29,929 bases of DNA from a virus (lineage: Duplodnaviria; Caudoviricetes). The position numbers and the translations under genes are program-made. Position 1 is the stretch's first letter, and each line of letters opens with the position of its first letter. The stretch lies in IMG/VR virus record IMGVR_UViG_3300017911_000323, positions 1 through 29,929 of that record; one strand, written 5' to 3'. The notes beneath the pieces are model-generated. The model did not search any database. It was not told the DNA's origin and worked only from the letters and a program-made list of their open reading frames with translations. Shown here piece by piece: positions 3,840 through 26,621 of this stretch.

Positions 3840-5558
3840 CTAACCTCTTGAGGTGTAGCTGCTAAGAGCACCAATGGTATTAAGTAAACTAATAAGCGTT
3901 GTTTGCATTGCTTTCTGTTGGTCTTCACCTGTTATCGCCTCCCCATATTGTTCACGCACATAATTCTGCATTGCATTTGGTAATGCTGTTTGCAAATCTA
4001 TTTGTTGTTCAAGAGATGGCAATTCAAAGTCTGTAGTTCCTTGTAAGAAGTTTTGATATCTAGTTTCTTCTCCAGCTAACTGTGTTTGAATATTTCTATT
4101 TCTTATTTCAAAGTTTTTCTTTTGTAAGTCATAAGATACTTGATTGTAATAATCAACAAAAGAGTTTAACTCTTCACTTGATACAGGTCTTCCTAATCCT
4201 CTTTCTAATGCATACTGTATGTCAGCTTGTGCATTGATTAAGTTAGGAGATTGATATTGAAATAATTCTTTATATCCTTGTGAATATCCTACAGTTGAAT
4301 GTGGTTCAAACTTACCTGTTCCATAACCATAATCTTCTAATGTATCTTTAAAAAACTCTTTGACAAATGTTAACAAGTTAGAGCTAGTTGCACCAGGTGC
4401 TAAAAGTATAGAGTATAAATCTTCTTTTGATATTGTATCTGCATTTAAATTAAACCTAGACATAGCAGAGTTAAGTGCTGCTAATGTTCCACCATCAGGT
4501 TGATTAAAATCTATTACACCATATGCAAATGAATATGGATTTAAAAATCCAGCTTCAACTAATAAGTTTTGTACTTCAGCTATTTCTTCTGGACTAGCAC
4601 TAGCAAATAGTAGTCTATCCATACCTGTTTCATATAATGGTACTAAGTTACCTTGTTCTTTATTACTGTATATTTCTTGGTCATATTCTTCTATACCAAT
4701 AAAACCAAACTGTGATGGGTCTGCAATTCTACCTGCTAACCAAGGGTCAAACATTTCTTGTGGTATGTATGCACCAGGATTTTCAACTATAGATATAAAT
4801 TCATTAGGCGATACTTCTCCTGTAGAAATAATTATATTATCCATTCCATCTAAATACTCTGCTGAAGTTATCTTACCTTCTTCTAATTGTGTAATTAAAT
4901 CTGTTGCTGTTCTGTTATCTAGTTGCTGAGCAGCAGCAGTTTTAATCTGTGCATCATATTGATTTTTAGTTAAGAAAGATTTGTATGCTAAGTCTGCTTC
5001 TGATGAATACTCTGATGTTATAGCTGCACCAATTACTGCATCATCAATATGCTTGAAACCTTCTGGTAATTCACCATTTTTAGAATACACATTCTTAAGA
5101 ACTGTTGCATCTTCTGTTATCTTATCTGCAAGTTCAACTACTAATTCATCTTGATACTGAAACATATCGTAGCTTTGTAATATCATATCCTGTGTATTAG
5201 GTGGTAAGTCAGCAAATACTTTACCTGTTTGTGCTTCCCAAACTAATATAAAGTCAGCCATAGATACTGGATTTACATCTGCAAATGGTGTATCTCCTGG
5301 GTCTCCACTTTGAAATAAAGCAACAACCATATCTACTACTTGGTCTAATGCTGGACCAAATATGTCAGCACCAAATATTCTAAGTAAGTTTCTTACCTTG
5401 TCTTTATTTACCTTTTTAGGTTTTCTGTTTGCAGGATTATATCCTGGTGATGTTTCATAACCTTCTGCCCAGTTAATAAGACTTGGTAAGTTCTCATATC
5501 TTTCTTTAGCTAGTTCATCTAGAACCGCTTGCTCTTCTGGACTTAGTTCTTCAATCAT
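3840..5558 (-). CDS. Putative internal virion protein with possible peptidoglycan-binding-like helical segment (572 aa)
   Basis: Long acidic ORF; SPEEIAEVQNLLVEAGFL...YGVID...TLAAL resembles PG-binding domains. Confidence 0.65.
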   Translation of the reverse strand: MIEELSPEEQAVLDELAKERYENLPSLINWAEGYETSPGYNPANRKPKKVNKDKVRNLLRIFGADIFGPALDQVVDMVVALFQSGDPGDTPFADVNPVSMADFILVWEAQTGKVFADLPPNTQDMILQSYDMFQYQDELVVELADKITEDATVLKNVYSKNGELPEGFKHIDDAVIGAAITSEYSSEADLAYKSFLTKNQYDAQIKTAAAQQLDNRTATDLITQLEEGKITSAEYLDGMDNIIISTGEVSPNEFISIVENPGAYIPQEMFDPWLAGRIADPSQFGFIGIEEYDQEIYSNKEQGNLVPLYETGMDRLLFASASPEEIAEVQNLLVEAGFLNPYSFAYGVIDFNQPDGGTLAALNSAMSRFNLNADTISKEDLYSILLAPGATSSNLLTFVKEFFKDTLEDYGYGTGKFEPHSTVGYSQGYKELFQYQSPNLINAQADIQYALERGLGRPVSSEELNSFVDYYNQVSYDLQKKNFEIRNRNIQTQLAGEETRYQNFLQGTTDFELPSLEQQIDLQTALPNAMQNYVREQYGEAITGEDQQKAMQTTLISLLNTIGALSSYTSRG

Positions 5559-8500
5559 TAAAAGTATCCTGTTCCTAGACTCTGCTCTTCTGCTTCAAGT
5601 CTAAATAAATCATAGTAAACATAGTAAAAGTCAGGATACTTAGTCATAAGCTGGCTAGCAGTATTTCTAAGTATCTTTCTTGCTTCACTAGCTTCTGCTC
5701 TACTAATACTAGCATTTGCACCGTATCTTTGCCTGATTCCTTCTAATAAGAACTGTCTAGTTATTATGTATTGCATAGCACCTTGTATTGCAGGTAAATC
5801 TTTAACAAATGTTTTACTACCATCAGGCATTGTTATTTCTGTATCTTGTTCTGTATTTACAAAGTTTATAAACAATTCAATCTTTGAATTTGTATCTAAT
5901 GATGGTGCAACTGTAGATGTTTGTCCATATCCAGGGAATTGTTTTTGTAACTGTAATCTAAACAAATACAATTGTTCAAACTTTTTATTTAATGGAACTC
6001 TAGTAAACATAGGTCCATCCATAAGCATTCTTCTAAAGTTTTCATATGCTAATGAACCTTGTGCCTGTCTAACAGCTTGTTTATATTGTTCATCAGTTAA
6101 ATCTATTCTATCTCCAGCAGTAAATGCATCTGCCCATGCTTGATAATCAAACTCATCTAATGGAGAATCAGGGAACATATAGTATGCAACATCAGGATGT
6201 TTGTCCATAATCTCTTTATTTTGTTTGTAAAAGTATCCACCTTCTACTGTATATGATGAAGGTCTTATTCTCTTTGACTTAGATGTAAGTAATGCTGTAG
6301 GGTCAAATCCAAACATCTTTATAAACTTACCAGTAGCTTGTATTCTATCTCCTTGGAACTCTGCTAAGAACTGATAGTAAGCATCTGACAATACTGTTTC
6401 TGCAAAGTAATGATGATTAGGGTCTTCATCTTTTATCTTTGTTGGGTCTAAAAACTTACTACCTTCAGGACCAATATTGTATTCGTATTTAGTTACTGGA
6501 CCTGTAGGTGCAATAGCTTGTACAATACCTCTGATTAATAACATTTGACTTGCAGTTTTTCTAGCTCTTTGTAATGACTCTTGTTCTGCAGCAGGAGAAC
6601 TATCATCGTATATTCCTGTAGTCATCATAGCTCTAAGAACACTCTTAACTTCGTTTGCGTATTGTCTATCTAAGTCTTTATCTAAAGAACCACCAGCAGC
6701 TAATATCTTTTTGTACCAGTTAGGTAATGCAGAGTTAACATAAAATCTAGGGTCATACCAATCACCTTCAGGTCTTCCATATGGAAAGAACACATCATCT
6801 ATTGTTTGCCTACTAGGTAACACTGCACTAGCAGGAAGTGAAGCCAAAGGACCAAGACCAGGAACTACTGAACCAGCTACCATGTTTAGTCCACTAGCAT
6901 AACCTTTCATCTTAGCTTTGACAGATGGTGTACCTATGTCAGGTCTCCCAGTTATAGGATTAATTGCTACATCTGATTCATCTGGATTATTTAACATTCT
7001 GTCAACATTAAATCCAAAATCAAAACCTGCCATGTTATACATCTCTTGACCTGTCTGTTCATCTGTAGTAAAGAAACCTTCATCTTCTTCTGTACCAAAT
7101 ACACTAGGCTTTCTAAAAGCTTCTACTGTTCTTTGTAGTTTTCTACCGAATAATGTCTTTTGTGTTTTAAGTAACTTAGTCCATGTACCAGCTATCTCTA
7201 AATAAACTTCTGCGAATGGAAATATTAATCTTAACTGGTCAGCAATTACATGCCTTTTGTTTAGGTCATATAGTAAACCTTTTGTTTCTTGCAATGCATA
7301 TGACTTAGCTAAATCATCTATAGCTCTTAAATCATCTACAGTAATAGCTTTTGTTACATCTGCTTTACCCATAGTTTCTAAATTCTTAATAAACTTACTA
7401 GCTTTAGAACCTGGCAGACTTCTACCCATTACATCTTTAGCTTGTTCTAATATCTTAGCTCTAGCAACATCATCCATATTTGCATATGCACCTTCAATAA
7501 ATCTCCAGTAGAACTGTCTAAATGCTGATGACCTTGATAATTCATTAGTAGGAACACCCATAAGAGTTGCATAGAATGTTTCTATTATCTGGTCAGCTCT
7601 AGCAGCGTAATCTCTGTCTGCTTCAAACCTAGATGCTTTTACTTTAAAACTATCTCCTACAGCATCTGACTTATAGTTATTTAACCAACTTGAATACTTT
7701 CTAAATTCACTTCTTGACATCTTTCTATTGAAAGGTATCTTTTCATACTCTTTACTTTTACTATTAAATATTTCTACAAACTGGTCTGCATCATCTTTGT
7801 AACCAGTAGCAATATGTCTAAGCAACTCATGGTCACCAGTCTTTTCTATTTCATATCTAATTACATTGTTAGGATTTGTAGGTCTAGGTGTTTCTAAATC
7901 TAATGGTATTTTCTTTCCATTAACAACTTCAAAAGCCCTATACTTACCACCTGTCTTTAAATGAACTCTAGCTACTATTGATTCAATATAGCTATCAGAC
8001 CATTTTTTATCTTCCATAATAAGTTTCTTTAATTGCTTAGCATCATCATCACTATTAGCAACTAATGCTTTTCTCCATTGTGACAAGTCACCAGACCAAA
8101 AGTCTTCTTTAATTTTATTGATACTATTTACAAAAGCTTCACTTGTAGGTTCACCAACAATAGTTGCATCAGCAATTCTAGAAGCTAACTCATCACTATG
8201 TAACTGTATAATTTCTGATGACCAAGCGTTATAAAATCCACCTTCACCTTTACCAACAGTCTTAAATCCTCTAGCCCTTCTAGGGTCAAGACCAAACAAT
8301 ATACCAGAGTGAGATTGTGAAGCAGCTTGTTGCCACTCAACAGATATCTCTAATGATTCATCAAGTATATCTTTTTCTCCTCTACCTAAATTCCATGTAT
8401 CTGCTAAGTAGTCATCTCTTAATGCTTCTCTCTCTTTTTGTAAGAACTGTCTGTTTCTTTGTGGTTTTCTACCTATAACCCAAGATAAAGCAGATAGTGG

Positions 8501-11500
8501 ATGTGCAAATACATTATCTAAGTCTGCAGCCCACATTCTCATTTGTTCTTCACCAACAACTCTTAGTACCCAAGCTGGTCTAATTAGTACAGATGGTTTC
8601 CATAATCTCTGCATATAACCATCAGCTATCTGTGTAAGTAAACCTTCTGATATTTGATTAATACCATCTTCATCAACATTCATTTTTATTTTTGTTCTTG
8701 CACTTTTAATCCATAACTTTACATTCTCTTGAATTGTTCTATCTTCTTTTAATGCAAGTTCAGCTAAGTCAGATATAGGTTTAGCAAGTAACTTATCAAA
8801 ATCTTCTTGTGGTAATGAACCTTTGCCTCTTAGTCTTAGTCCTAGTTCTCTCATAGGTCTAAATACTCTTAGGAACAATCTTGCATCTGGCATAGGAATA
8901 AAACCATCATTGTAATATTCAGATATCAAATGAGCTGTAGGTCTAGCTTTAGATACTTGACCTTCTTCTATTTTATCTACAAAGTTTATATTCTTTAATT
9001 CATCAATTAATTCATCTAGCATTCCACGAATTTCACCTTCATTAATAACTAAGTCACCTAAGTCATCTGTGCTATCTAAGTAATCTTCTAATGTTCTAGA
9101 TAAATTACCTACTGTGTTTGTTAGATTATCTGTTGATTCAGTTTGAAATATTATGTTATCCATAAGTGTTTTAAGTTGTACTGATTCATCTGCTGTTAAA
9201 CCACTAGAACCTACAACACCTAAATCATTTATTTTATTAGTTTTAATAAACTGTTGTATCTCTCTTATTTCATCTGCAGTATATGCTTTATTTGGATTAA
9301 CCACTATATGTGGTATGTTTCCTTGATATAGTCCAGGAGATAAATCTACTTGTTTACCAATAAGACCTTTTTTATTTAAAATGTTTGTCAAAGCTTCTGC
9401 TTGGTTTACTCTTCCTGGTTTACTAAATGAATCTACTAATTTAAATCCTTTATTCATTTTATTAGCAAGGTTTTGTATTAAGTCTGGATTTTCTGCTGCC
9501 CACATTGACCATAGCTTTTCATATTCAATTTTACTTTTATACAATCCTTGACCATATAAAATACTATCTCTTGCTGGTGGTTTATTTTTTCCAGATTTTT
9601 TAATTGTATTTTGCCATACATCTTCTATGGTTCTACCTGCATATGGACCTGATTTAAACTCAGCAAACAAAGCAGAAAACTGTTGTCCTAATGTATCTCC
9701 TCTACTTGATACTTCAAATGGTAAAGAATCTTCTAAATCATCCCACTTACCATTTTCTAAAAAGTTTTTACTAGACTTTAATCCTTTGCCAGGTTTATCA
9801 GCATCAGACAATATAACTAATACACCATCAGAGTTAGATAAGTTATCAGCAGCAGCTTTTCTAAAATCATCTGCAGTTGGTTCTATTGAACCCCAATCTT
9901 TAGTTAACTCATCATATTTAGGTTTTTTAGCATTTACGCTTTGTAGTTCTTTAAATTTAGGAATATTGTTTTCTAAAAAGGCAACTTGGTCTTGTACTTG
10001 TTTTTGTATTCTATTTAGGTTTTCATCTAAATTAGCTATAGCTTGGTCTAGTGTTACGGCAGTTTGTCTTCCTCTACCTCTGGCTATTTCTTCTGATATT
10101 TCATCAATAACTTTTTCACCTGTAACTTCATCAATGTATGCTTCTCTAGTTACAGTCTTTAATTCAAATGCTTCTTTAGTTACAGGGTTATCTAATTCTA
10201 TTTTTTTATTTGCTTGTAACCATGCAACTGCTTCATCTTCTTTAACAATCTCTGATAATGTTTGTAGATTATCTCCATCTCTTTGTTGATATAAAGGAAC
10301 TTGTATTTCTGTTCCATTATCTAAAATAACTGTTTTCTTTTGATTAGTTTTTACATAACCTTTTGATTCAGCTATTCGTAATCTAGCAAAACCTATATTG
10401 GCTTTAGTAGGAGAGTACTTAGCAATAATTCCATCTTTTTGTGTTTGCAATGATTCTCTTGCAGCATTTAATCTAGAAGCAGCTTTTTCTGATTCCTCTA
10501 GTTGACTCATGGCTAATTTTACTTTGCCTTGTTTTTGTCTAGGTAATTTATTTAATTCATCCTGTAACTCAACTTTAACTTTATCTGATAGGGTTCCCCA
10601 ATCATATTCCATTCGTGCAATATCGGAATTAAGATTGTCTGATAGTCCAAGCTGTAACATTCGTTGTCTGTTTGAGTCGTATCTTCCTTCTATGTTTAAA
10701 GGCTTATACTCTATTTGGTACATAGGGAAACCTTTATCTAAACCTTTTTCGTACATTCTTTTTTGGAATGCATTCTCTGTCCAACCTTCTTTAGAAATAA
10801 TATCTTCTAGCAATACTCTTCTTTGTGGATTAGTAAATAAATCTTTAGGTAGCTTTCTTATCTTTGTTACTTCTACTGCAACTTCTCTACCTTTATTGTC
10901 AGTAAATAATATACGTTGACCTCTAAATGGTAATGAAAACTCTTCACCTTTTTGCTTACCAAATCCAACAGCCCAAGCACCTTCACTTCTAGTTGTAGAA
11001 GTTCTTTTACCATCAAGTATTAAATCCATAGTTGTAGTATTTAATCCATATATATTTTCATCAGGTAACATTTCAAAGTTCATACCGTGCCTACTCATAT
11101 TGGTAGTATCTATAGCACCAGCAGCTACTTTACCTGTATAACCATATGGAACTCTACCAGCAGTACCAATACCTAATTCCTCTGCAATATCTAATGCTGC
11201 TTGTTCTGCACCTGTGTAATATCCTGAGTTTATTCTTTGTACAAGCTGTCTAGCTTCTGGTTCTGTAATATTGTTAGCAGCTTCTTGTATTCTTCTTAAT
11301 ACATCATCTACTTCAGAACTATCTACTTTTTTATTTTTTCTAAACTTTGAAATAATTCTTTCAGTTAACAATCTTGTTTCATCTGGTGACAATGCTTCAG
11401 CAACAAGTTCTCTAGTTTCTTTTGGTATAATCTCATACTTAGAACCTACAAACCATTCAAGTTCACCTAGCTCATTAACAAAGTACATTCTTGTTTGGTC

Positions 11501-13132
11501 AATTGATGACATCCATTTACGAACACCTTTAACTAATTCTTCAGGTAAACCTACATTCTCAAACTTTGAACCAATGTGTGTAAGTACTTGATTCCATATC
11601 TCTAGAACTTCATTCATGTTTTCTATAGCATTGACTGGTTGTTCTAACTCAGGATTAAGTATCTTAGCCTTTTGTGCTATTGCTAAGTCTGCTAATTTAT
11701 CTAATGCAGGATTTGCAATATCATCATCTACTTTTGCAAACTTCATCCAATCTCTTAAATCAAAGAATGATTGGTCTAAATCATTTACATAAAGTTTAGG
11801 TACAGGAAAAGCAGAAAATATTCTACCTAACTGTGAATCATCAATAGATTTCTTGACAGCACCTTTTACACCAACTGCTTGTCCAAAATCACCTGCTATT
11901 GCTCTACCTAAACCAGAAGATATTTTTCCTCTCATTACTAATGATGTAGGATTTAGTTTATTTAATACTTGTCTTTCTTCTATTGCATCAATAAGTAAAC
12001 TTTGTATTTCACCTCTGCTATTACTATCTTTCAAAGCTTTATGTAAAGTTGCATCTCCTTGTCCTTTTAATAAGTTATTAATTGTTTGAAAGTCATCAGC
12101 TAATACAAACTGGTCAACTATCTTTTGACCTGCTTTAGTTTTAGTAATGTACTGAGTTGCAGAAGGAATATGAACTGTTTTTCTTATAGCGTTGTTTATA
12201 ACTCCAGCTCTAGATAATGCTATAGATTGGTCTAAACTTCTAACAGCTTTACCTGCTTTATTAAGATATCCACCAACTAATATTGTTGGGTCAGCTAGTA
12301 AAGTTAATGCACCATCAACTACACCTGACACTAAGTTATAAGCTCTAGTACCAGGTTCTATAACAGAAGCTACAAGTGGTGCTGCAGGAGTTAACTTAAT
12401 TGTTTGACCACTTCTAGATTTAAAAGTTAAACCTTCATCTCTAGCTCTTTCCTGATTAGTTATATCTTGACCATAATACGATTGAACTATCTCTTTAGTT
12501 TGTTCTGGGTCTGCACCTCTAGCAATCATTTCTTTATATATATCTGTTTCTTCAGCTACTGTAGAGTTTGCAAAGTATCCTTCACCTAGGTTTACCTTTT
12601 TACCTGCTGTTAAGTTCTTTAATGCTTCTCTACCTACAGATGGACCTAATTGCTTTTTAACCTTTTGCCATTCATTCATTGCATCTCTATTTGTGTATAG
12701 TTGCAACATTGCACCAGCTAAACCAATACCTTCATTGTATTTTTTGTCATTAAGGTATTTCTGTGTAGCTAATAAAGGTTTTTTAACTAACTCATCTTGT
12801 AAAGAATCAAATACTGTAAATGCAGTTCTTATAGTTCCTCTACCTACAGCTTTTAATTTATCCCAGAAATTCTTTTCAGTATCTAACCATCTCTCCACAA
12901 TAGGTGCTAGCTCAGGACTTTCTGTAGTTAAACCTATTAAAGAAGCACCAACTAATACATCTTTTGGTAAATAAAAATGTTCTTGTATTAAGCCTTGTAA
13001 GTTTTGTGATAGTTGAGGATTAGCTTCAATATAGCTAGTTATAGTTTTGGCTTGTTGTATTCTATCTTCTTGTGCTTGATTTTCATAATCTTGCATATAT
13101 GGTGGTTGCCACCACCATCTTACCTCTGCCAT
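5558..13132 (-). CDS. Giant internal virion/ejection (polyvalent-type) protein, 2524 aa, with SLOG(cpYpsA)-, ASCH- and NADAR-like inserts
   Basis: Size and position after portal; GGAGA RBS; motifs TGAEQAALDIAEELG, DLILDGKRTSTTR, NSDGVLVI, FEVSSRGD..FSAL..GRTIEDVWQ. Confidence 0.8.
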   Translation of the reverse strand: MAEVRWWWQPPYMQDYENQAQEDRIQQAKTITSYIEANPQLSQNLQGLIQEHFYLPKDVLVGASLIGLTTESPELAPIVERWLDTEKNFWDKLKAVGRGTIRTAFTVFDSLQDELVKKPLLATQKYLNDKKYNEGIGLAGAMLQLYTNRDAMNEWQKVKKQLGPSVGREALKNLTAGKKVNLGEGYFANSTVAEETDIYKEMIARGADPEQTKEIVQSYYGQDITNQERARDEGLTFKSRSGQTIKLTPAAPLVASVIEPGTRAYNLVSGVVDGALTLLADPTILVGGYLNKAGKAVRSLDQSIALSRAGVINNAIRKTVHIPSATQYITKTKAGQKIVDQFVLADDFQTINNLLKGQGDATLHKALKDSNSRGEIQSLLIDAIEERQVLNKLNPTSLVMRGKISSGLGRAIAGDFGQAVGVKGAVKKSIDDSQLGRIFSAFPVPKLYVNDLDQSFFDLRDWMKFAKVDDDIANPALDKLADLAIAQKAKILNPELEQPVNAIENMNEVLEIWNQVLTHIGSKFENVGLPEELVKGVRKWMSSIDQTRMYFVNELGELEWFVGSKYEIIPKETRELVAEALSPDETRLLTERIISKFRKNKKVDSSEVDDVLRRIQEAANNITEPEARQLVQRINSGYYTGAEQAALDIAEELGIGTAGRVPYGYTGKVAAGAIDTTNMSRHGMNFEMLPDENIYGLNTTTMDLILDGKRTSTTRSEGAWAVGFGKQKGEEFSLPFRGQRILFTDNKGREVAVEVTKIRKLPKDLFTNPQRRVLLEDIISKEGWTENAFQKRMYEKGLDKGFPMYQIEYKPLNIEGRYDSNRQRMLQLGLSDNLNSDIARMEYDWGTLSDKVKVELQDELNKLPRQKQGKVKLAMSQLEESEKAASRLNAARESLQTQKDGIIAKYSPTKANIGFARLRIAESKGYVKTNQKKTVILDNGTEIQVPLYQQRDGDNLQTLSEIVKEDEAVAWLQANKKIELDNPVTKEAFELKTVTREAYIDEVTGEKVIDEISEEIARGRGRQTAVTLDQAIANLDENLNRIQKQVQDQVAFLENNIPKFKELQSVNAKKPKYDELTKDWGSIEPTADDFRKAAADNLSNSDGVLVILSDADKPGKGLKSSKNFLENGKWDDLEDSLPFEVSSRGDTLGQQFSALFAEFKSGPYAGRTIEDVWQNTIKKSGKNKPPARDSILYGQGLYKSKIEYEKLWSMWAAENPDLIQNLANKMNKGFKLVDSFSKPGRVNQAEALTNILNKKGLIGKQVDLSPGLYQGNIPHIVVNPNKAYTADEIREIQQFIKTNKINDLGVVGSSGLTADESVQLKTLMDNIIFQTESTDNLTNTVGNLSRTLEDYLDSTDDLGDLVINEGEIRGMLDELIDELKNINFVDKIEEGQVSKARPTAHLISEYYNDGFIPMPDARLFLRVFRPMRELGLRLRGKGSLPQEDFDKLLAKPISDLAELALKEDRTIQENVKLWIKSARTKIKMNVDEDGINQISEGLLTQIADGYMQRLWKPSVLIRPAWVLRVVGEEQMRMWAADLDNVFAHPLSALSWVIGRKPQRNRQFLQKEREALRDDYLADTWNLGRGEKDILDESLEISVEWQQAASQSHSGILFGLDPRRARGFKTVGKGEGGFYNAWSSEIIQLHSDELASRIADATIVGEPTSEAFVNSINKIKEDFWSGDLSQWRKALVANSDDDAKQLKKLIMEDKKWSDSYIESIVARVHLKTGGKYRAFEVVNGKKIPLDLETPRPTNPNNVIRYEIEKTGDHELLRHIATGYKDDADQFVEIFNSKSKEYEKIPFNRKMSRSEFRKYSSWLNNYKSDAVGDSFKVKASRFEADRDYAARADQIIETFYATLMGVPTNELSRSSAFRQFYWRFIEGAYANMDDVARAKILEQAKDVMGRSLPGSKASKFIKNLETMGKADVTKAITVDDLRAIDDLAKSYALQETKGLLYDLNKRHVIADQLRLIFPFAEVYLEIAGTWTKLLKTQKTLFGRKLQRTVEAFRKPSVFGTEEDEGFFTTDEQTGQEMYNMAGFDFGFNVDRMLNNPDESDVAINPITGRPDIGTPSVKAKMKGYASGLNMVAGSVVPGLGPLASLPASAVLPSRQTIDDVFFPYGRPEGDWYDPRFYVNSALPNWYKKILAAGGSLDKDLDRQYANEVKSVLRAMMTTGIYDDSSPAAEQESLQRARKTASQMLLIRGIVQAIAPTGPVTKYEYNIGPEGSKFLDPTKIKDEDPNHHYFAETVLSDAYYQFLAEFQGDRIQATGKFIKMFGFDPTALLTSKSKRIRPSSYTVEGGYFYKQNKEIMDKHPDVAYYMFPDSPLDEFDYQAWADAFTAGDRIDLTDEQYKQAVRQAQGSLAYENFRRMLMDGPMFTRVPLNKKFEQLYLFRLQLQKQFPGYGQTSTVAPSLDTNSKIELFINFVNTEQDTEITMPDGSKTFVKDLPAIQGAMQYIITRQFLLEGIRQRYGANASISRAEASEARKILRNTASQLMTKYPDFYYVYYDLFRLEAEEQSLGTGYF

Positions 13133-18459: not shown

Positions 18460-18979
18460 GTTTATCTAACAAATGGTAGCTAACATTAAACTCACCACAT
18501 ACTCCAGTGTTTATAAGGTCTTCAATAGGTACTATCAATGAGCGTGAAAAAAAATTTTTATTTTGAGCATCTACAATTCTGTATTCTTTGTTTATTACCC
18601 AGTCCATGATATAAGGAATTAACCTATCTGGATTCCAGTAAAGGACACGACTAGTTGGATATACCCAGTACATGAGAAAGTCAGGGAATGTTTTTAATGC
18701 ACATCCTATACGCTTGTCTGTATCCCCATACACTACTTGTATTTCTAATGCTACATTCCCTGTCTCCTCTGCTCTAGTGTCGGTTTTTACTTCGACATAC
18801 CTAGTGCCTAATTCTTGATTCATAATAAAGAAATCTGCACCTTTTAGTTGTTCTTCTTTAAATGCATCTCTAACTATATATTTTCTTTTACCTTCATCTG
18901 TCTGTTGTGATTCGTAGTAAGACTTAATTAGTTTCTCACCTTTCTTACCAACTTCTAGTTGTTCATCAAAATCAAACAT
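18455..18979 (-). CDS. PD-(D/E)XK restriction-endonuclease-fold protein
   Basis: GKKGE...GADF...VEVKTD...TGNVALE motif arrangement. Confidence 0.7.
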   Translation of the reverse strand: MFDFDEQLEVGKKGEKLIKSYYESQQTDEGKRKYIVRDAFKEEQLKGADFFIMNQELGTRYVEVKTDTRAEETGNVALEIQVVYGDTDKRIGCALKTFPDFLMYWVYPTSRVLYWNPDRLIPYIMDWVINKEYRIVDAQNKNFFSRSLIVPIEDLINTGVCGEFNVSYHLLDKL

Positions 18980-19274
18980 TTGGATTCTCTACTTCATACA
19001 TAGTGTAGGTTACTGTTAGTTCCTCACCAGCTTCTATAGGTCTAATTGTCCATAAAAACTTATGTCCTTCTAATTCACTTAACTTACAGTTAGGTTTGTC
19101 ACTATGATTAATAAAACCACCTAATGGTGTTCTAATTATTCTTGTACCTAATATTACATGCGTATTACCTAGGTTCGTATCTGAACCTATATGCATCATT
19201 GTAAATAAACCTAATCCATCTAAGTCACTAGGTTTAATTGTTAATCCCAATGGTAGGGGTCTATAAGTTGCCAT
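18972..19274 (-). CDS. Minimal SET-domain protein-lysine methyltransferase
   Basis: DGLGLF, FINHSDKPNC and IEAGEELTVTY SET motifs; AAGGAAGG RBS. Confidence 0.92.
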   Translation of the reverse strand: MATYRPLPLGLTIKPSDLDGLGLFTMMHIGSDTNLGNTHVILGTRIIRTPLGGFINHSDKPNCKLSELEGHKFLWTIRPIEAGEELTVTYTMYEVENPNV

Positions 19275-20107: not shown

Positions 20108-20143
20108 GTTTGACTTGACCTATGTGTTAAAGATAAGAGTAAT
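20108..20143 (+). promoter_or_regulatory. Rightward copy of conserved element, likely promoter of the first early gene
   Basis: TTGACC (20115-20)-N17-AGTAAT, 10 nt before the AGAAAGGA RBS. Confidence 0.55.
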
Positions 20144-20165
20144 TTAGTCGAGAGAAAGGAATAAC

Positions 20166-20960
20166 ATGACTAATGAACAAATAACCAATCTACTTAATCA
20201 AAGTGGATTAGAAGTATCCAATGTAACAAGTAAGTCCAAGAGTGACACACAACCTACTCAAGATATACTAGAACAGTTATCCATTGAGAAAGGACTTACT
20301 CTACAATCTAGCGTAAGTAAATCAAAAAAGACTTGGCTAGGTCGTAAGACAAAAGCGAATGCTAAGTTCAACAACCAGATTGTAGCAGTTACATTTACCT
20401 ACAAGAGAGTGCTTGGTAGCGAAGTTGGCGATACCGAAGGTGCAGAGAAAAATCGCTTTGCGCTTTACATCGACAACAAGTTCTACACTGGCGTATACTT
20501 TAAGCAACTTAGTGCTGTGAAACAGTTTGAGTTCATGCTTAAGTATAACCAAGAACTTCTTACCGATGATGCATTCTCTGCATATCACATTGGTAGCGAC
20601 TGGAAGTTGCCTACTCAATTTCTCAATGACCTTGGGAAAAACAAATGTTTGGCTTGGACTTCCAGTCATGGTGTACCAGTCATGGTGCCAACCATATTCC
20701 AATGCCAAAATTACGACAACACAAACGATATGAATGGTACACCATTCTCACGACCTAATAAAATTATGTCCAAGAATGATGCAGGCTTATCTGCTATCCA
20801 GATTGGTCAAGTCTACCAAAGTAATATCCCAGTGATGTCACCAGATAGATGGACTTCCATTACGAAGTCTATGCACGCTGGTACTACACCTTCTGTATCA
20901 CCAGATGAACAGGCATTTATCAAATACTATATGGAACTTGTTTCCAAAGTAAAAGCCTAA
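20166..20960 (+). CDS. Hypothetical protein (264 aa), monocistronic first plus-strand gene
   Basis: Strong RBS AGAAAGGA and its own terminator. Confidence 0.85.
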   Translation: MTNEQITNLLNQSGLEVSNVTSKSKSDTQPTQDILEQLSIEKGLTLQSSVSKSKKTWLGRKTKANAKFNNQIVAVTFTYKRVLGSEVGDTEGAEKNRFALYIDNKFYTGVYFKQLSAVKQFEFMLKYNQELLTDDAFSAYHIGSDWKLPTQFLNDLGKNKCLAWTSSHGVPVMVPTIFQCQNYDNTNDMNGTPFSRPNKIMSKNDAGLSAIQIGQVYQSNIPVMSPDRWTSITKSMHAGTTPSVSPDEQAFIKYYMELVSKVKA

Positions 20961-20967
20961 CCACACT

Positions 20968-21003
20968 AAAAACTCGGTACGCGTTGCGTACCGAGTTTTT
21001 TTT
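20968..21003 (+). terminator. Intrinsic (possibly bidirectional) terminator
   Basis: aaaaactcggtacgc-gtt-gcgtaccgagtttttttt. Confidence 0.93.
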
Positions 21004-21344: not shown

Positions 21345-21743
21345 ATGAAAAAGTATAGAGTATCAAATCCCCCAAGTCCTAGCCTTGCTAGTACAGGTGA
21401 GTATGTGTTACCAAGCGACAGAATACAGGGTACACAAGACTGTATATTCTGTGGCAGTTTGACAATGTCATACCGAAGGGTATGCAACAAATGTAAATGG
21501 TCTGTGTCACCTGAGCGTTTGGAAATACTCCAACGCAAACGACAAGGTCAGATAGAAGCAATGCAACAAGAACGCATTGACAAAGCTAACAAAGAGTATT
21601 CATTTGCGAGTGATAAGGTAGAGCTAGTTGATACCAGAGAAGAACGCGTATGCAGTCTGTGTTATCTGTTCTCATTCAATATGAAACAAACCTTCATGTG
21701 TTTCAGAACAGAAGTAAACATATGCACAGATTGTAAAAGATAA
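21345..21743 (+). CDS. Double Zn-finger-like protein (132 aa, start MKKYRV)
   Basis: GGAAGGAG RBS before ATG 21345; CxxC pairs CIFC/CNKC and CSLC/CTDC. Confidence 0.75.
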   Translation: MKKYRVSNPPSPSLASTGEYVLPSDRIQGTQDCIFCGSLTMSYRRVCNKCKWSVSPERLEILQRKRQGQIEAMQQERIDKANKEYSFASDKVELVDTREERVCSLCYLFSFNMKQTFMCFRTEVNICTDCKR

Positions 21744-22008
21744 GCTACTACTCCGACACGATACATCTAGACATGTGTCTCCTTTCTCATTGTCGGAGTG
21801 TAGCTAGAAGTACATGGGTGGTATTTCACACATACCACATTACACATACCACAAGCCACCTGTGTACTTCTAGCTATTCACATGAGTAAAAGCAGTTTCC
21901 CCTGTCTGTGCATTGAAAGTGTGAGTAGCGTGAAGTCTATGTGTGTACATATTAACTAATACATAACATATCTACTACAACATGTAGGCTTCACGCTACG
22001 CCAGTAGC
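21743..22008 (+). ncRNA. Array of four interlocked stem-loops (plus a terminal mini-hairpin); candidate multi-sRNA precursor
   Basis: Stems of 15, 22, 11 and 20 bp; loops 32, 32, 35 and 35 nt; TAGC/GCTA junctions shared; all 8 non-WC pairs are G-U. Confidence 0.75.
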
Positions 22009-22021
22009 AGAGAGGATATAT

Positions 22022-22180
22022 ATGGATATAGTTTGCGATAACTGTAGACAAGGCAAGATGGTCGTGACAGGAACATATGCCAATGTCAAATCATCTGTAC
22101 TCAATATGGTCAAGTGTTTCACCTGTGGGTATGGAAGTGTAAGAAAAGAAAACAACAAGAGGAGGTTACACAGTGAGTGA
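22022..22180 (+). CDS. 52-aa Zn-ribbon protein MDIVCDNC...CFTCG
   Basis: AGAGGA RBS, two CxxC; below ORF-track cutoff. Confidence 0.75.
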   Translation: MDIVCDNCRQGKMVVTGTYANVKSSVLNMVKCFTCGYGSVRKENNKRRLHSE

Positions 22181-23947: not shown

Positions 23948-24676
23948 ATGGATTGCTGGGATTTATTATCCAAAGTACTACCTGCGACACCAAGAGTTTT
24001 ACTCTATGGTCCTCCAGGTACAGGAAAAACTTATATTGCGAACACAGAAGGGTTGAGAGAAAATCAAGATGTTTTCCAAACAACGCTTACACAGGACAGC
24101 ACTGCTGCCGAATTGTTAGGACACTATGTACCAAATGAAAGTGGTGCATTTGAATGGCTTGATGGTCTTGGTATCAAGGCATGGAAGCAAGGCTCAAGAC
24201 TTGTTATCAACGAGATTGATAACGCTGGTGTTGATGTAATGACATTCTTACATGCGTTGCTTGATGACCCCAAGTTTGCGAAGTTTACTTTGCCGAACAA
24301 AACAAAAGAAGTTGTAAGACCTGCTAATGGTTTTCAAGTAGTTGCAACTATGAATGGTACACCAGATGACTTGCCAGAAGCATTGGCTGATAGGTTTCCT
24401 GTGAAACTTAATATGGACAAAGTCAATCCGAAAGCCATTGAGTTGCTACCAAACAACTTGCGTGGTGCATACAACGACTACACAAATGCAAACTCTGTGT
24501 TCTCTGTTCGTAAATGGATTGCGTTTGCAGAACTAATGGACGCTGATATTCCTGTAGATGAAGCAGCGTTGGCAGTATTTCAAGAGAATGCAGATGAACT
24601 AGTGAATGCATTGGCTATACAAGATAGCGATGACATTCCTGAAGTAGAAGATACAGATGAAGAAAGTGATGAGTGA
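23948..24676 (+). CDS. MoxR/CbbQ-type (AAA_5, CobS-like) AAA+ ATPase
   Basis: GPPGTGKT, LVINEID, VATMN, ALADRF. Confidence 0.92.
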   Translation: MDCWDLLSKVLPATPRVLLYGPPGTGKTYIANTEGLRENQDVFQTTLTQDSTAAELLGHYVPNESGAFEWLDGLGIKAWKQGSRLVINEIDNAGVDVMTFLHALLDDPKFAKFTLPNKTKEVVRPANGFQVVATMNGTPDDLPEALADRFPVKLNMDKVNPKAIELLPNNLRGAYNDYTNANSVFSVRKWIAFAELMDADIPVDEAALAVFQENADELVNALAIQDSDDIPEVEDTDEESDE

Positions 24677-24682
24677 TAAGTT

Positions 24683-26497
24683 ATGGATATCTTTGCAGGT
24701 AACAAGCTAAAGAAATCTACTAACAAACCACTACTGCTACCAAACTTAGCATTGAGAGGGAACAGGGCTGTTAACTATAGTCTTAACAAATCCTCCTCAG
24801 TTGATACAGATGGGAAGGAACTTAGTGTTCCTTCCCTTCCGTATGCTAGTAAGTTTGAGGAAAGAAAGATGGCTAACTTAATCATGTTCGCTAACAAACA
24901 TTATCGTTTCGATAGGTATGTTGGTATTGAACATCCACAGATATTGCAGTTAGCCAAAGTAATTGCAGGTGGTTTCAATGCAAGGTTACTGTACAGAAAG
25001 CTACAGTTACCAAGCAGGTTTAAGGTTAGTAGGAAAGAAGCACAAAGCTACTACGCTAGAGAAGAAATCATGAAGTTTCGTTCCTATGCTCAAGATGCTT
25101 TTAATAAAGCAAGAATAGATAATCAAAAACTTCTTGAGAATTTGAGAGAAGAAAACAAAATGAAAGCATCTGACAAGTTCTATGATGTTCTTGACATATG
25201 GAAAGATTTGATTGATGACAAAGAAGTTATCAATTACTTGACATACAAAGCAATGGAAACAAATATATATCCAATCGTTGATGGTAGATACTTATCAATG
25301 GTTGTGCAGAATGCAGTTGACATGTATTACAATACAAAAAATCCAATGGCAACTGCGATGTATATTGTTGAACAAGTCGCAGTAGTATCATCTGAATATT
25401 ACAGAAGTGCTTTTTATGATGAAATAGAAGCTGCTGTTAGAAGGAACATACCATTTGGTATGGATGAAGAAGTCATCAAAGGAGATATGTCTTTCTTTAA
25501 TGAGTTCATATCTACAGTTCTATCAACTTGTTCACAAGCTAAAAGATTGCCTGAAGGCGCGAAAGGATATCAAAAGTTTCATCGCTGGGATAACAGTGCC
25601 AAAGGTTGGAAGTCTCGTGAAAAGATTATTAACAAACCGAAAGGTTTAGTTAGAAAGATATACAATCAACTTACATTCGACTCATATTGGCAACAAGAAA
25701 GAGTAGCAAGATTTGATGCTAGATACTTACCATCTGAGATTGCACATGAAATGAAAGAAACTATGGAAGGTGGTATCAAGCTACCTGACAATCTATCCGA
25801 TGAACTTAAAGAAGAAATCATGGAAGAAGGCAACAACAATCATAACTATAGGTTCAATCATAGAGCAGAGTATGGTGGTGTAGGTAAACATGGTAAAGCT
25901 TTGATTAGAAAGTTTAAGCCAAACATTAGGATACAAAAAGCAATCAGAGAGATACAAAAGCGTAACTCTGATATTGGTGTTGTTCCTAAGAACATGCACA
26001 GAATGACTATTGATAGAAAGGTATTTAGCAGTAGGAAATCTGTTGCAGGTGGTTCAATGATGATTGACTTCTCAGGTTCAATGGGTTGGAGTGATGATGA
26101 AGTTAGAGAGATTATTGACTTGCTACCAGCTTCTACGATTGCTGGCTATGTAGGATACAACAATCTGATTGATGGTTACGATGGTAGAATTAACATCATT
26201 GCAGAGAATGGTAAAATGGATAGCACTGCAATCAATGATTTGTTGCAATGGGGTGCTAACTCTGTTGACTTAGATGCATTGAAGTGGCTAGCCAAACAAC
26301 CTGAACCAAGGATATGGGTATCTGACCAAGCAGTTTATGGAGTTGATGAGAGAGGTTACAACAGAGAACTACCTTATCAATCTAAGCTAGAGATACTAAG
26401 ATTTATGCAAACGCATAACATCATACCTATTGAAAGCTACGATACAGTTTACAAAGTTGCTAAGCAACTAGCAACCAATGTGAAACGCAAAAGGTAA
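24683..26497 (+). CDS. VWA-domain partner protein (CobT-like)
   Basis: C-terminal MIDAS motif MIDFSGSM and later WVSD; adjacent to MoxR-type ATPase. Confidence 0.85.
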   Translation: MDIFAGNKLKKSTNKPLLLPNLALRGNRAVNYSLNKSSSVDTDGKELSVPSLPYASKFEERKMANLIMFANKHYRFDRYVGIEHPQILQLAKVIAGGFNARLLYRKLQLPSRFKVSRKEAQSYYAREEIMKFRSYAQDAFNKARIDNQKLLENLREENKMKASDKFYDVLDIWKDLIDDKEVINYLTYKAMETNIYPIVDGRYLSMVVQNAVDMYYNTKNPMATAMYIVEQVAVVSSEYYRSAFYDEIEAAVRRNIPFGMDEEVIKGDMSFFNEFISTVLSTCSQAKRLPEGAKGYQKFHRWDNSAKGWKSREKIINKPKGLVRKIYNQLTFDSYWQQERVARFDARYLPSEIAHEMKETMEGGIKLPDNLSDELKEEIMEEGNNNHNYRFNHRAEYGGVGKHGKALIRKFKPNIRIQKAIREIQKRNSDIGVVPKNMHRMTIDRKVFSSRKSVAGGSMMIDFSGSMGWSDDEVREIIDLLPASTIAGYVGYNNLIDGYDGRINIIAENGKMDSTAINDLLQWGANSVDLDALKWLAKQPEPRIWVSDQAVYGVDERGYNRELPYQSKLEILRFMQTHNIIPIESYDTVYKVAKQLATNVKRKR

Positions 26498-26520: not shown

Positions 26521-26621
26521 AAAGGCGTGTAGAAATACACGCCTTTTTTTTTGGTCTAAAATAATCCCTATGGCGTGTAGAAATACACGCCTTTTTTTTT
26601 GGTCTTTTTTTTTCCCTATGG
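26521..26621 (+). terminator. Tandemly duplicated intrinsic terminator (48-bp unit x2)
   Basis: ggcgtgta-GAAA-tacacgcc-T9-ggtct at 26524 and 26572. Confidence 0.92.

Follow-up and report, generated by a model that had tools for sequence, protein, structure and literature searches.

RsaE and RNAIII are Gram-positive sRNAs in which C-rich loops pair to Shine-Dalgarno (SD) sequences. In Neisseria, the constant inverted arms of Correia elements form RNase III substrates, and viral microRNA clusters are polycistronic hairpins that silence viral as well as host mRNAs by means of a guide taken from the stem. Compared on these properties, the hairpin array that we report here differs from Correia elements, which are dispersed mobile repeats, and from microRNAs in that its proposed seed lies in the loop.

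Four further systems are compared here. The prophage sRNA DicF (bioRxiv 10.1101/2023.04.14.536235) and the phage c4 antisense RNA (PMC12197685) resemble the array in its proposed working; however, they are single RNAs, whereas the present arrays consist of 2-8 unrelated cassettes on interlocked carriers that are exchanged between phages, and the array shows no sequence or Rfam match. RsaA (PMC3961350), another Gram-positive sRNA with a C-rich loop, likewise uses pyrimidine-rich loop seeds to pair with the SD, but each RsaA-type sRNA has a chromosomal gene to itself, with a promoter and a terminator of its own, unlike a shuffled phage array. TIGR-Tas (PMC12045711) is also a phage stem-loop array with variable palindromic stems that is processed to single units; it depends on a Nop protein and on spacers between boxes C and D. 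Pfam and PHROG searches over the 30 ORFs of our record, which is ~71% complete, gave no Nop-domain (Tas) protein, and paired 8-12-nt spacers between box C and box D were not seen by eye in the alignments. Moreover, the present units have no fixed size, and they are predicted to target the start regions of mRNAs instead of DNA. CRISPR arrays and the Racr RNA anti-CRISPRs (PMC10651486) share the repeat-cargo-repeat build (with 22-nt repeats in the relatives of our array) and the encoding of small RNAs by phages. In CRISPR arrays, the repeats are like-oriented, whereas here successive repeats point in opposite directions and pair with each other over the intervening cargo. The cargos are folded and conserved and are no copies of targets, and a cas gene was not seen. 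Searches of full-text literature, mostly outside subscription journals, gave no description of such an array. The array is real, widespread and unlike catalogued systems.

Results

An interlocked hairpin array in the early region of a marine phage

The stretch of DNA analysed here in its full length of 29,929 nt (the window) is a 29.9-kb marine phage record with genes that include those for terminase, endolysins, a holin, an AAA ATPase and an exonuclease. The array sits in a region of small, early-type genes on the + strand, past a strand switch near 19.3-20.1 kb and close to where the GC skew changes sign (near 21-22 kb). It fills the gap between the stop codon of a 132-aa ORF and the ribosome-binding site (RBS) of a zinc-ribbon-like ORF (Table 1).

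A sequence-only reading of the window had described four interlocked hairpins and a closing mini-hairpin in this gap. The stems were borne out, with 15 bp in H1 (T21749 bulged), 22 in H2, 11 in H3, 20 in H4 and 5 bp in the mini-hairpin, and so were the interlocked junctions, at which neighbouring arms overlap by 5, 4, 5 and 5 nt, the loop lengths of 32, 32, 35 and 35 nt, and the eight non-Watson-Crick pairs (three in H2, two in H3 and three in H4), each of which is G-U on the + strand. The folding energy of positions 21730-22020 on the + strand (-103.2 kcal/mol, z -8.0) was equalled by none of 200 shuffles, and the minus strand of the same interval gave z -4.2. Within the whole window, this array is the sole chain of four long stems. 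As the same reading had held, the hairpins are not terminators, a terminator being absent from the gap, and scans for tRNA and tmRNA in the gap were negative. One qualification concerns loops 1 and 3, neither of which is open: a 7-bp inner hairpin lies within the first, and the third contains an AGUA/GAA internal loop and an inner stem.

Table 1. Features of the hairpin array and of the surrounding early region (window coordinates).
Feature	Position	Strand	Remarks
First early gene, ORF 20166-20960, 264 aa	region 20140..20960	+	no matching family or fold
RBS region of ORF 20166, GAGAAAGGA	20152-20160	+	predicted self-target of H1
Terminator-like hairpin with T-run	20968..21000	+	parts first early gene from array-bearing unit
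Upstream early ORF, 132 aa	21345..21743	+	CxxC pairs, no family
Cassette H1, class A	21743..21805	+	15-bp carrier, inner hairpin 21760-21779
H1 seed, single-stranded	21780-21788	+	TCCTTTCTC
Cassette H2	21801..21876	+	22-bp carrier, 32-nt loop without G
12-nt direct repeat in H2 loop	21828-21839, 21842-21853	+	
Cassette H3, class C	21873..21929	+	11-bp carrier, internal loop AGUA (21885-88)/GAAA (21915-18)
H3 apical seed	21900-21906	+	CCCTGTC
Cassette H4, diverged class B-prime	21925..21999	+	20-bp carrier
H4 seed	21968-21975	+	ATATCTAC
Closing mini-hairpin (empty carrier)	21995..22008	+	directly 5' of RBS 22010-22016
Downstream ORF, 52 aa, zinc-ribbon-like	22022..22180	+	

The family of the 132-aa ORF lies upstream of 33 of the 138 distinct arrays described below, and the zinc-ribbon family follows 39 of them. 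Because the zinc-ribbon gene was not found in the genome bin that holds the array of locus L302, it is probably no obligate partner; we rejected it in that role on this ground and because arrays occupy at least six gene contexts, with no fixed neighbour gene. For ORF 20166, searches of the atlas, of PDB sequences and of folds gave no match, the fold model being weak (pLDDT 60). At the position of this first early gene (20166-20960, + strand), relatives carry unrelated families (264 aa here, ~148 aa elsewhere); those at the same position in L005, L019 and L302 include none with a known family.

Elsewhere in the window, a 48-nt terminator-like hairpin with a T-run occurs in two tandem copies that are 88% alike (26524-26619), either a duplication or an assembly artefact. 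A 2524-aa protein (5558-13132, minus strand), a candidate internal virion protein, matches PHROG only over a short stretch and the SLOG family only weakly, and a stand-alone SET-domain protein of 100 aa is encoded at 18972-19274 (minus strand). A MoxR-type AAA ATPase is followed by a 604-aa unannotated protein (23948-26497, + strand), presumably its vWA-type partner, and the pair is conserved in relatives.

A family of swappable hairpin cassettes

Related loci were gathered by means of the AAA protein (20 loci), the downstream zinc-ribbon ORF (76 viral loci and the best 80 of 119 metagenomic ones) and the junction word (at least 124 loci, ~210 estimated). A parser that required stems sharing GC at every join found arrays in 194 of the 301 related loci and in none of 80 shuffled loci. 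The GC linker itself is not singled out by this result, since the parser demanded GC and a TA control gave equally long chains; an unbiased count of stem overlaps, which is of low sensitivity, was flat. Altogether, there are 138 distinct arrays of 2-8 units each and 442 distinct units, and these counts are rough because some loci were picked up by more than one scan and, in a few cases, parsed units extend into coding sequence. At the 3' end of related arrays, closing by a mini-hairpin is common too.

Two near-constant stems, carrier X (9 bp; 186 of the 442 units) and carrier Y (14-15 bp; 124 units), strictly alternate along the arrays (207 mixed joins: 113 XY and 94 YX; no XX and no YY). The other 132 units, among them all four of the window, have other stems. 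Thus, stems that are unrelated in sequence, as had been claimed, are a property of the window copy but not of the family, in which 310 of 442 units sit on one of two stems. The same is true of the uniform loop size: loops measure 32-35 nt in the window, but inner loops in the family range from 3 to 101 nt (median 43; 56 of 442 units at 30-36 nt), and the uniformity in the window is therefore incidental. Unit length varies from 16 to 135 nt. Each of the two junction words recurs as a 22-nt direct repeat, and one is nearly the reverse complement of the other, with differences at G-U positions.

The 414 cargos group into 208 clusters. Unit turnover, a point that the sequence-only reading had raised, is evident between relatives: of 57 units shared in identical form, 25 lie next to different units, and 8 of 84 multi-member cargo clusters are found on both carriers. 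A contig from a seawater RNA library is identical to positions 1263-1451 of L076 (189 nt) and then has another cargo right after the carrier arm. Cargo pairs in inverted orientation were not found (0 vs 398 same-strand pairs), which led us to reject an invertible, shufflon-type cassette system. The carrier junction word had no match in 185,579 cellular genomes, and the array of L119 none among 50,697 phage records. Judged from these sequence comparisons, the window array is a member of a widespread phage family of swappable hairpin cassettes. The exchange of cassettes would most simply occur by homologous recombination between like-oriented 22-nt junction repeats.

Two recurring elements were observed among the cargos. 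Some carry a tRNA T-arm (L119 4362-5053; clusters 50 and 172), one of them identical over 18 nt to a host-group tRNA-Met, and a small hairpin with the word CACGCAAGTGAT is found just upstream of the array in L001, L002 and L003 and inside cargo clusters 42 and 160.

Strand bias and covariation point to an RNA from the + strand

From the G-U pairs, selection on the + strand had been proposed, and the family agrees with this: sense is better than antisense in 192 of the 194 array loci, and stem bases show 447 G-U vs 28 A-C. The stems of class C covary, with double changes at 12 of 15 pairs, a level reached by none of 500 shuffles; over the 41 sequences, 94.9% of cells are paired, beyond 500 shuffles and all slid controls. 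Amid this covarying stem, AGUA and the CCCUGU loop are invariant. The class C seed is present in 93 of 131 array loci (class A in 57, class B-prime in 20) and occurs at 1.28 per kb in arrays vs 0.06 outside and 0.04 on the other strand, a 20-fold excess over the flanks. The cargos, too, are folded (mean MFE z -1.2). There is no enrichment of cargos that could form a pseudoknot (7 of 191 vs 3.9 ± 2.0), and the idea of a pseudo-antitoxin was dropped on this account. The sequence-only reading had claimed no Rfam family, and Rfam 15 gave no match at the gathering score in the window and none in 20 array loci, with only sub-threshold matches in 15 loci. A single 151-nt contig from one RNA run (word share 0.07) covers 21966-22116 and is silent on strand, ends and level; no meaning attaches to the stretches that it leaves uncovered. 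Taken together, covariation and strand bias point to an RNA from the + strand, and it is very likely that the array is transcribed, probably within the early operon.

A likely Actinomarina-type host

The best terminase matches are to Streptomyces phages (25%). A related phage contig with an array is binned in a 1.1-Mb Actinomycetota MAG, the nearest genomes to which measure 0.8-1.1 Mb. One of these, of 1.01 Mb and 31% GC, fits the figures for Ca. Actinomarinales, for which ~1.1 Mb and 32.5% GC and the lack of toxin-antitoxin and CRISPR systems are reported (PMC7771536). The one binned phage contig thus suggests a likely host of the Actinomarina type. RNase III is encoded in 4/4 host-group genomes. 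We note that the 58-kb MAG contig L302/L303 has the same phage region twice and is probably a circular genome that was assembled with overlap and binned with its host.

Conserved loops complement start regions of early genes and of genes of the likely host

Long matches of the cargos to the putative host genome, to its start regions or to further phage DNA are not in excess, and the cargos are therefore not spacers; that they are folded and vary widely in length also contradicts spacer-like target copies. A CRISPR array was rejected on the lack of this excess and on the alternating repeat orientation. The earlier proposal of antisense guides fails for such copies but is supported for the conserved loops of classes A, B-prime and C.

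The seed of class A is anti-SD-like, and its extension is longer on the phage's own start regions than on those of other phages (9.81 vs 8.50). Among 45 pairs, whose rows are non-independent and include the 150 nt upstream of arrays, 24 reach at least 10 paired bases vs 9.5 expected; with one cassette per cluster, pairing energies are -14.8 (own) vs -13.5 kcal/mol (p = 0.017), and 14 of 19 beat the null median. The post-seed bases vary by lineage, each matching its own target (L132, L066, L127, L143, L054, L070). A matrix of first genes (n = 15 loci) gave p = 0.25 overall and 0.018 within family. For loop 1 of the window, the best of 30 own start regions is that of ORF 20166, which lies in the top 1.6% of non-self sites and is not significant alone. 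The predicted targets of class A are mostly upstream of the array and, in the window, beyond a terminator.

The groES leader reached a geometric-mean rank of 2.7 of 1168 (best null 23.6) when the B-prime loops were scanned blind for duplexes. This leader, from an Actinomarina-like genome, ranks first of 1168 for 6/6 B-prime loops, forming 13-16 contiguous pairs immediately upstream of the SD, and groES is in the top ten for 9 of 34 B-family loops. Loop 4 of the window matches more weakly (groES ranked 53rd and 26th), and only 6 of 11 small host-group genomes carry the groES site.

For class C, clpX came first in the blind duplex scan (8.9, null 30.5), with near ties; for loop 3 of the window, clpX ranks 13th, a weaker match. 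Of the relatives of the host bin, 11 of 13 with small genomes and 0 of 10 with larger ones have AACAGGG at the SD position of clpX, and ACAGGG occurs in 1 of 888 phage start regions. The window carries CCCTGTC, a rare variant of the class C seed (2 of 67 contexts), and one small genome has the complementary GACAGGG. Of the recurrent cargo 9-mers, 5 of 14 have a conserved host upstream complement vs 0.9 ± 0.9 (sense 0), and these five collapse to two motifs. The target of the class C 9-mer is conserved before clpX and a gene that we take to be smc in two genomes (724 orthologues), the second of which was picked after both sites were known there and was therefore not blind; in the same two genomes and orthologues, 1.2% of permuted seeds have any conserved target. 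With the variant genome G012 included, neither the clpX nor the smc site passes the conservation test. A class C model run over the 1.01-Mb host-group genome gave no match. In G010 and G011, an identical 10-11-nt word with AACAGGG precedes both clpX and the putative smc; the phage may here be exploiting a regulatory site of the host.

The SD of dnaK, GAAAGGA, is conserved in 13/13 small genomes. We rejected dnaK as a specific target on account of its low ranks, 61st with class A and 133rd with class B, one B member being the exception. Separately, a conserved word, AGAGAACAA, lies ~30-50 nt upstream of dnaK in small genomes (L453-L468), and 11 nt of one class B cargo are complementary to it.

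For the remaining cargos, the picture is different. No relative of H2 was found (119 loop-pattern matches in viral contigs, none in array context) and no target, a 12-nt match to the start region of one relative being within chance for that search, as is a 14-nt match of loop 4 to the start region of another. No target was found for most accessory cargos; 204 cargo clusters together showed no antisense excess to host start regions, and over 425 cargo instances, phage start regions of self beat non-self only slightly. The ~200 accessory cargos are probably target-specific antisense RNAs or protein decoys. A single-stranded conserved seed that is complementary to a start region, the mark of a trans-acting antisense sRNA, was found for classes A, B-prime and C. 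These complementarities support the antisense reading of the three core classes with moderate strength, and we consider antisense action of these classes fairly likely.

Discussion

Based on these observations, we favor a model, on balance a probable one, of a swappable cassette array that is likely transcribed and cut, with loops that would silence the phage's own early genes and genes of its likely host. In this model, the second early transcript would include the array. Each carrier would fold locally, and through the alternation of X and Y, identical arms would be kept from pairing with the wrong partner. The units would then be freed at the shared junctions as separate small RNAs by a nuclease of the host, probably RNase III. 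In the relatives, carriers can be extended to a 22-bp helix because the junction words are near reverse complements. Such a length is possible for X/Y carriers; in the window, pairing past the junction amounts to only 4-6 bp. The 22-bp helix would be centered on a self-complementary GC, and a staggered cut after GC in both strands would leave each unit with a 2-nt 3' overhang. Such an overhang corresponds to the geometry of RNase III cleavage. We give cutting of the junctions by the host RNase III close to an even chance. The seeds of the freed loops would cover ribosome-binding regions and block translation. In other words, RNAs of the H1 type would act as a feedback brake on the first early genes of the phage itself, while those of the H4 type would block groES of the likely host and those of the H3 type clpX and probably smc.

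The loops could instead be protein-binding decoys or aptamers, processed or on one long scaffold RNA, with seeds that are protein motifs and mRNA matches that are due to chance. The folding of the cargos, the T-arm words and the 18-nt identity to a host tRNA, the absence of a nucleic-acid target for most cargos and the AGUA/GAA internal loop retained by class C are all compatible with binding of proteins. However, chance matches are hard to reconcile with class A extensions that follow each phage's own start regions and with B-prime loops that form long contiguous pairing to one leader, and pseudoknots are not enriched. The likely host order is also reported to lack toxin-antitoxin and CRISPR systems (PMC7771536), and the usual decoy targets would therefore be gone. 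Decoy action is unlikely as the explanation of the array and is probably true for part of the accessory cargos. An action of the core loops on the ribosome, with B-prime on 16S rRNA at ~680-700 in two pieces, C on AACAGG at ~760 and A as an anti-SD sponge that mimics the 16S 3' tail, strikes us as quite improbable. The two B-prime motifs do complement 16S rRNA in the right order, which they do nowhere else in the 1.01-Mb genome, the sites in question are the leading antisense hot spots on 16S, and the 16S 3' end of the host group reads CACCTCCTTTCT; nevertheless, groES scores above the 16S window for 6/6 B-prime loops, the third invariant C of class C is unpaired in 16S, class A is tuned to own genes, and the overall enrichment on rRNA is weak (p 0.01-0.65, many tests).

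We see very little chance that the array holds guides for a phage protein effector in the manner of TIGR. Tandem phage stem-loop units beside small uncharacterised proteins would suit such a system, but no Nop, Cas or IS110 family is found among the 30 ORFs of the window (with the record ~71% complete, an unlinked effector may lie beyond it), ORF 20166 has no fold match, as judged from a weak model, no neighbour gene is fixed over at least six contexts, units range from 16 to 135 nt, and spacer-like matches were not found. An element that acts at the level of DNA or purely in cis, such as a set of recombination sites, an origin or the leader of the next gene, would account for the alternating inverted 22-nt repeats, the sign change of the GC skew and the position of array ends directly 5' of an RBS. 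Against it stand the one-strand G-U bias, the RNA-type internal loop, the absence of inversions, the unrelated genes that follow arrays and the position of the predicted class A targets, mostly upstream of the array and in the window past a terminator, and we likewise hold it to be very improbable.

Returning to the silencing cassettes that we favor, we tentatively suggest a wider reading in which the arrays may be recombination-shuffled libraries of small RNAs that are released from their carriers by RNase III and comprise antisense RNAs as well as aptamer-like decoys. The conserved few would time early genes and silence the chaperonin and ClpX, and the ~200 accessory cargos would be a traded arsenal against host factors or rival phages, and the arrays a counterpart in prokaryotes of viral microRNA clusters, with integron-like exchange.

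Known phage regulatory RNAs are single genes, whereas here a modular, exchangeable RNA array is found in abundant marine phages. The window copy is invisible to repeat finders and the family to Rfam. The ~200 cargo clusters represent a natural library of compact folded RNAs, and the array provides a natural design for the multiplexed expression of sRNAs from one transcript. It also yields testable predictions in the form of named pairs of seeds and targets with natural compensatory variants. Finally, the array suggests that these phages may steer host protein quality control by means of RNA, in a streamlined host that is reported to be without CRISPR and toxin-antitoxin systems.
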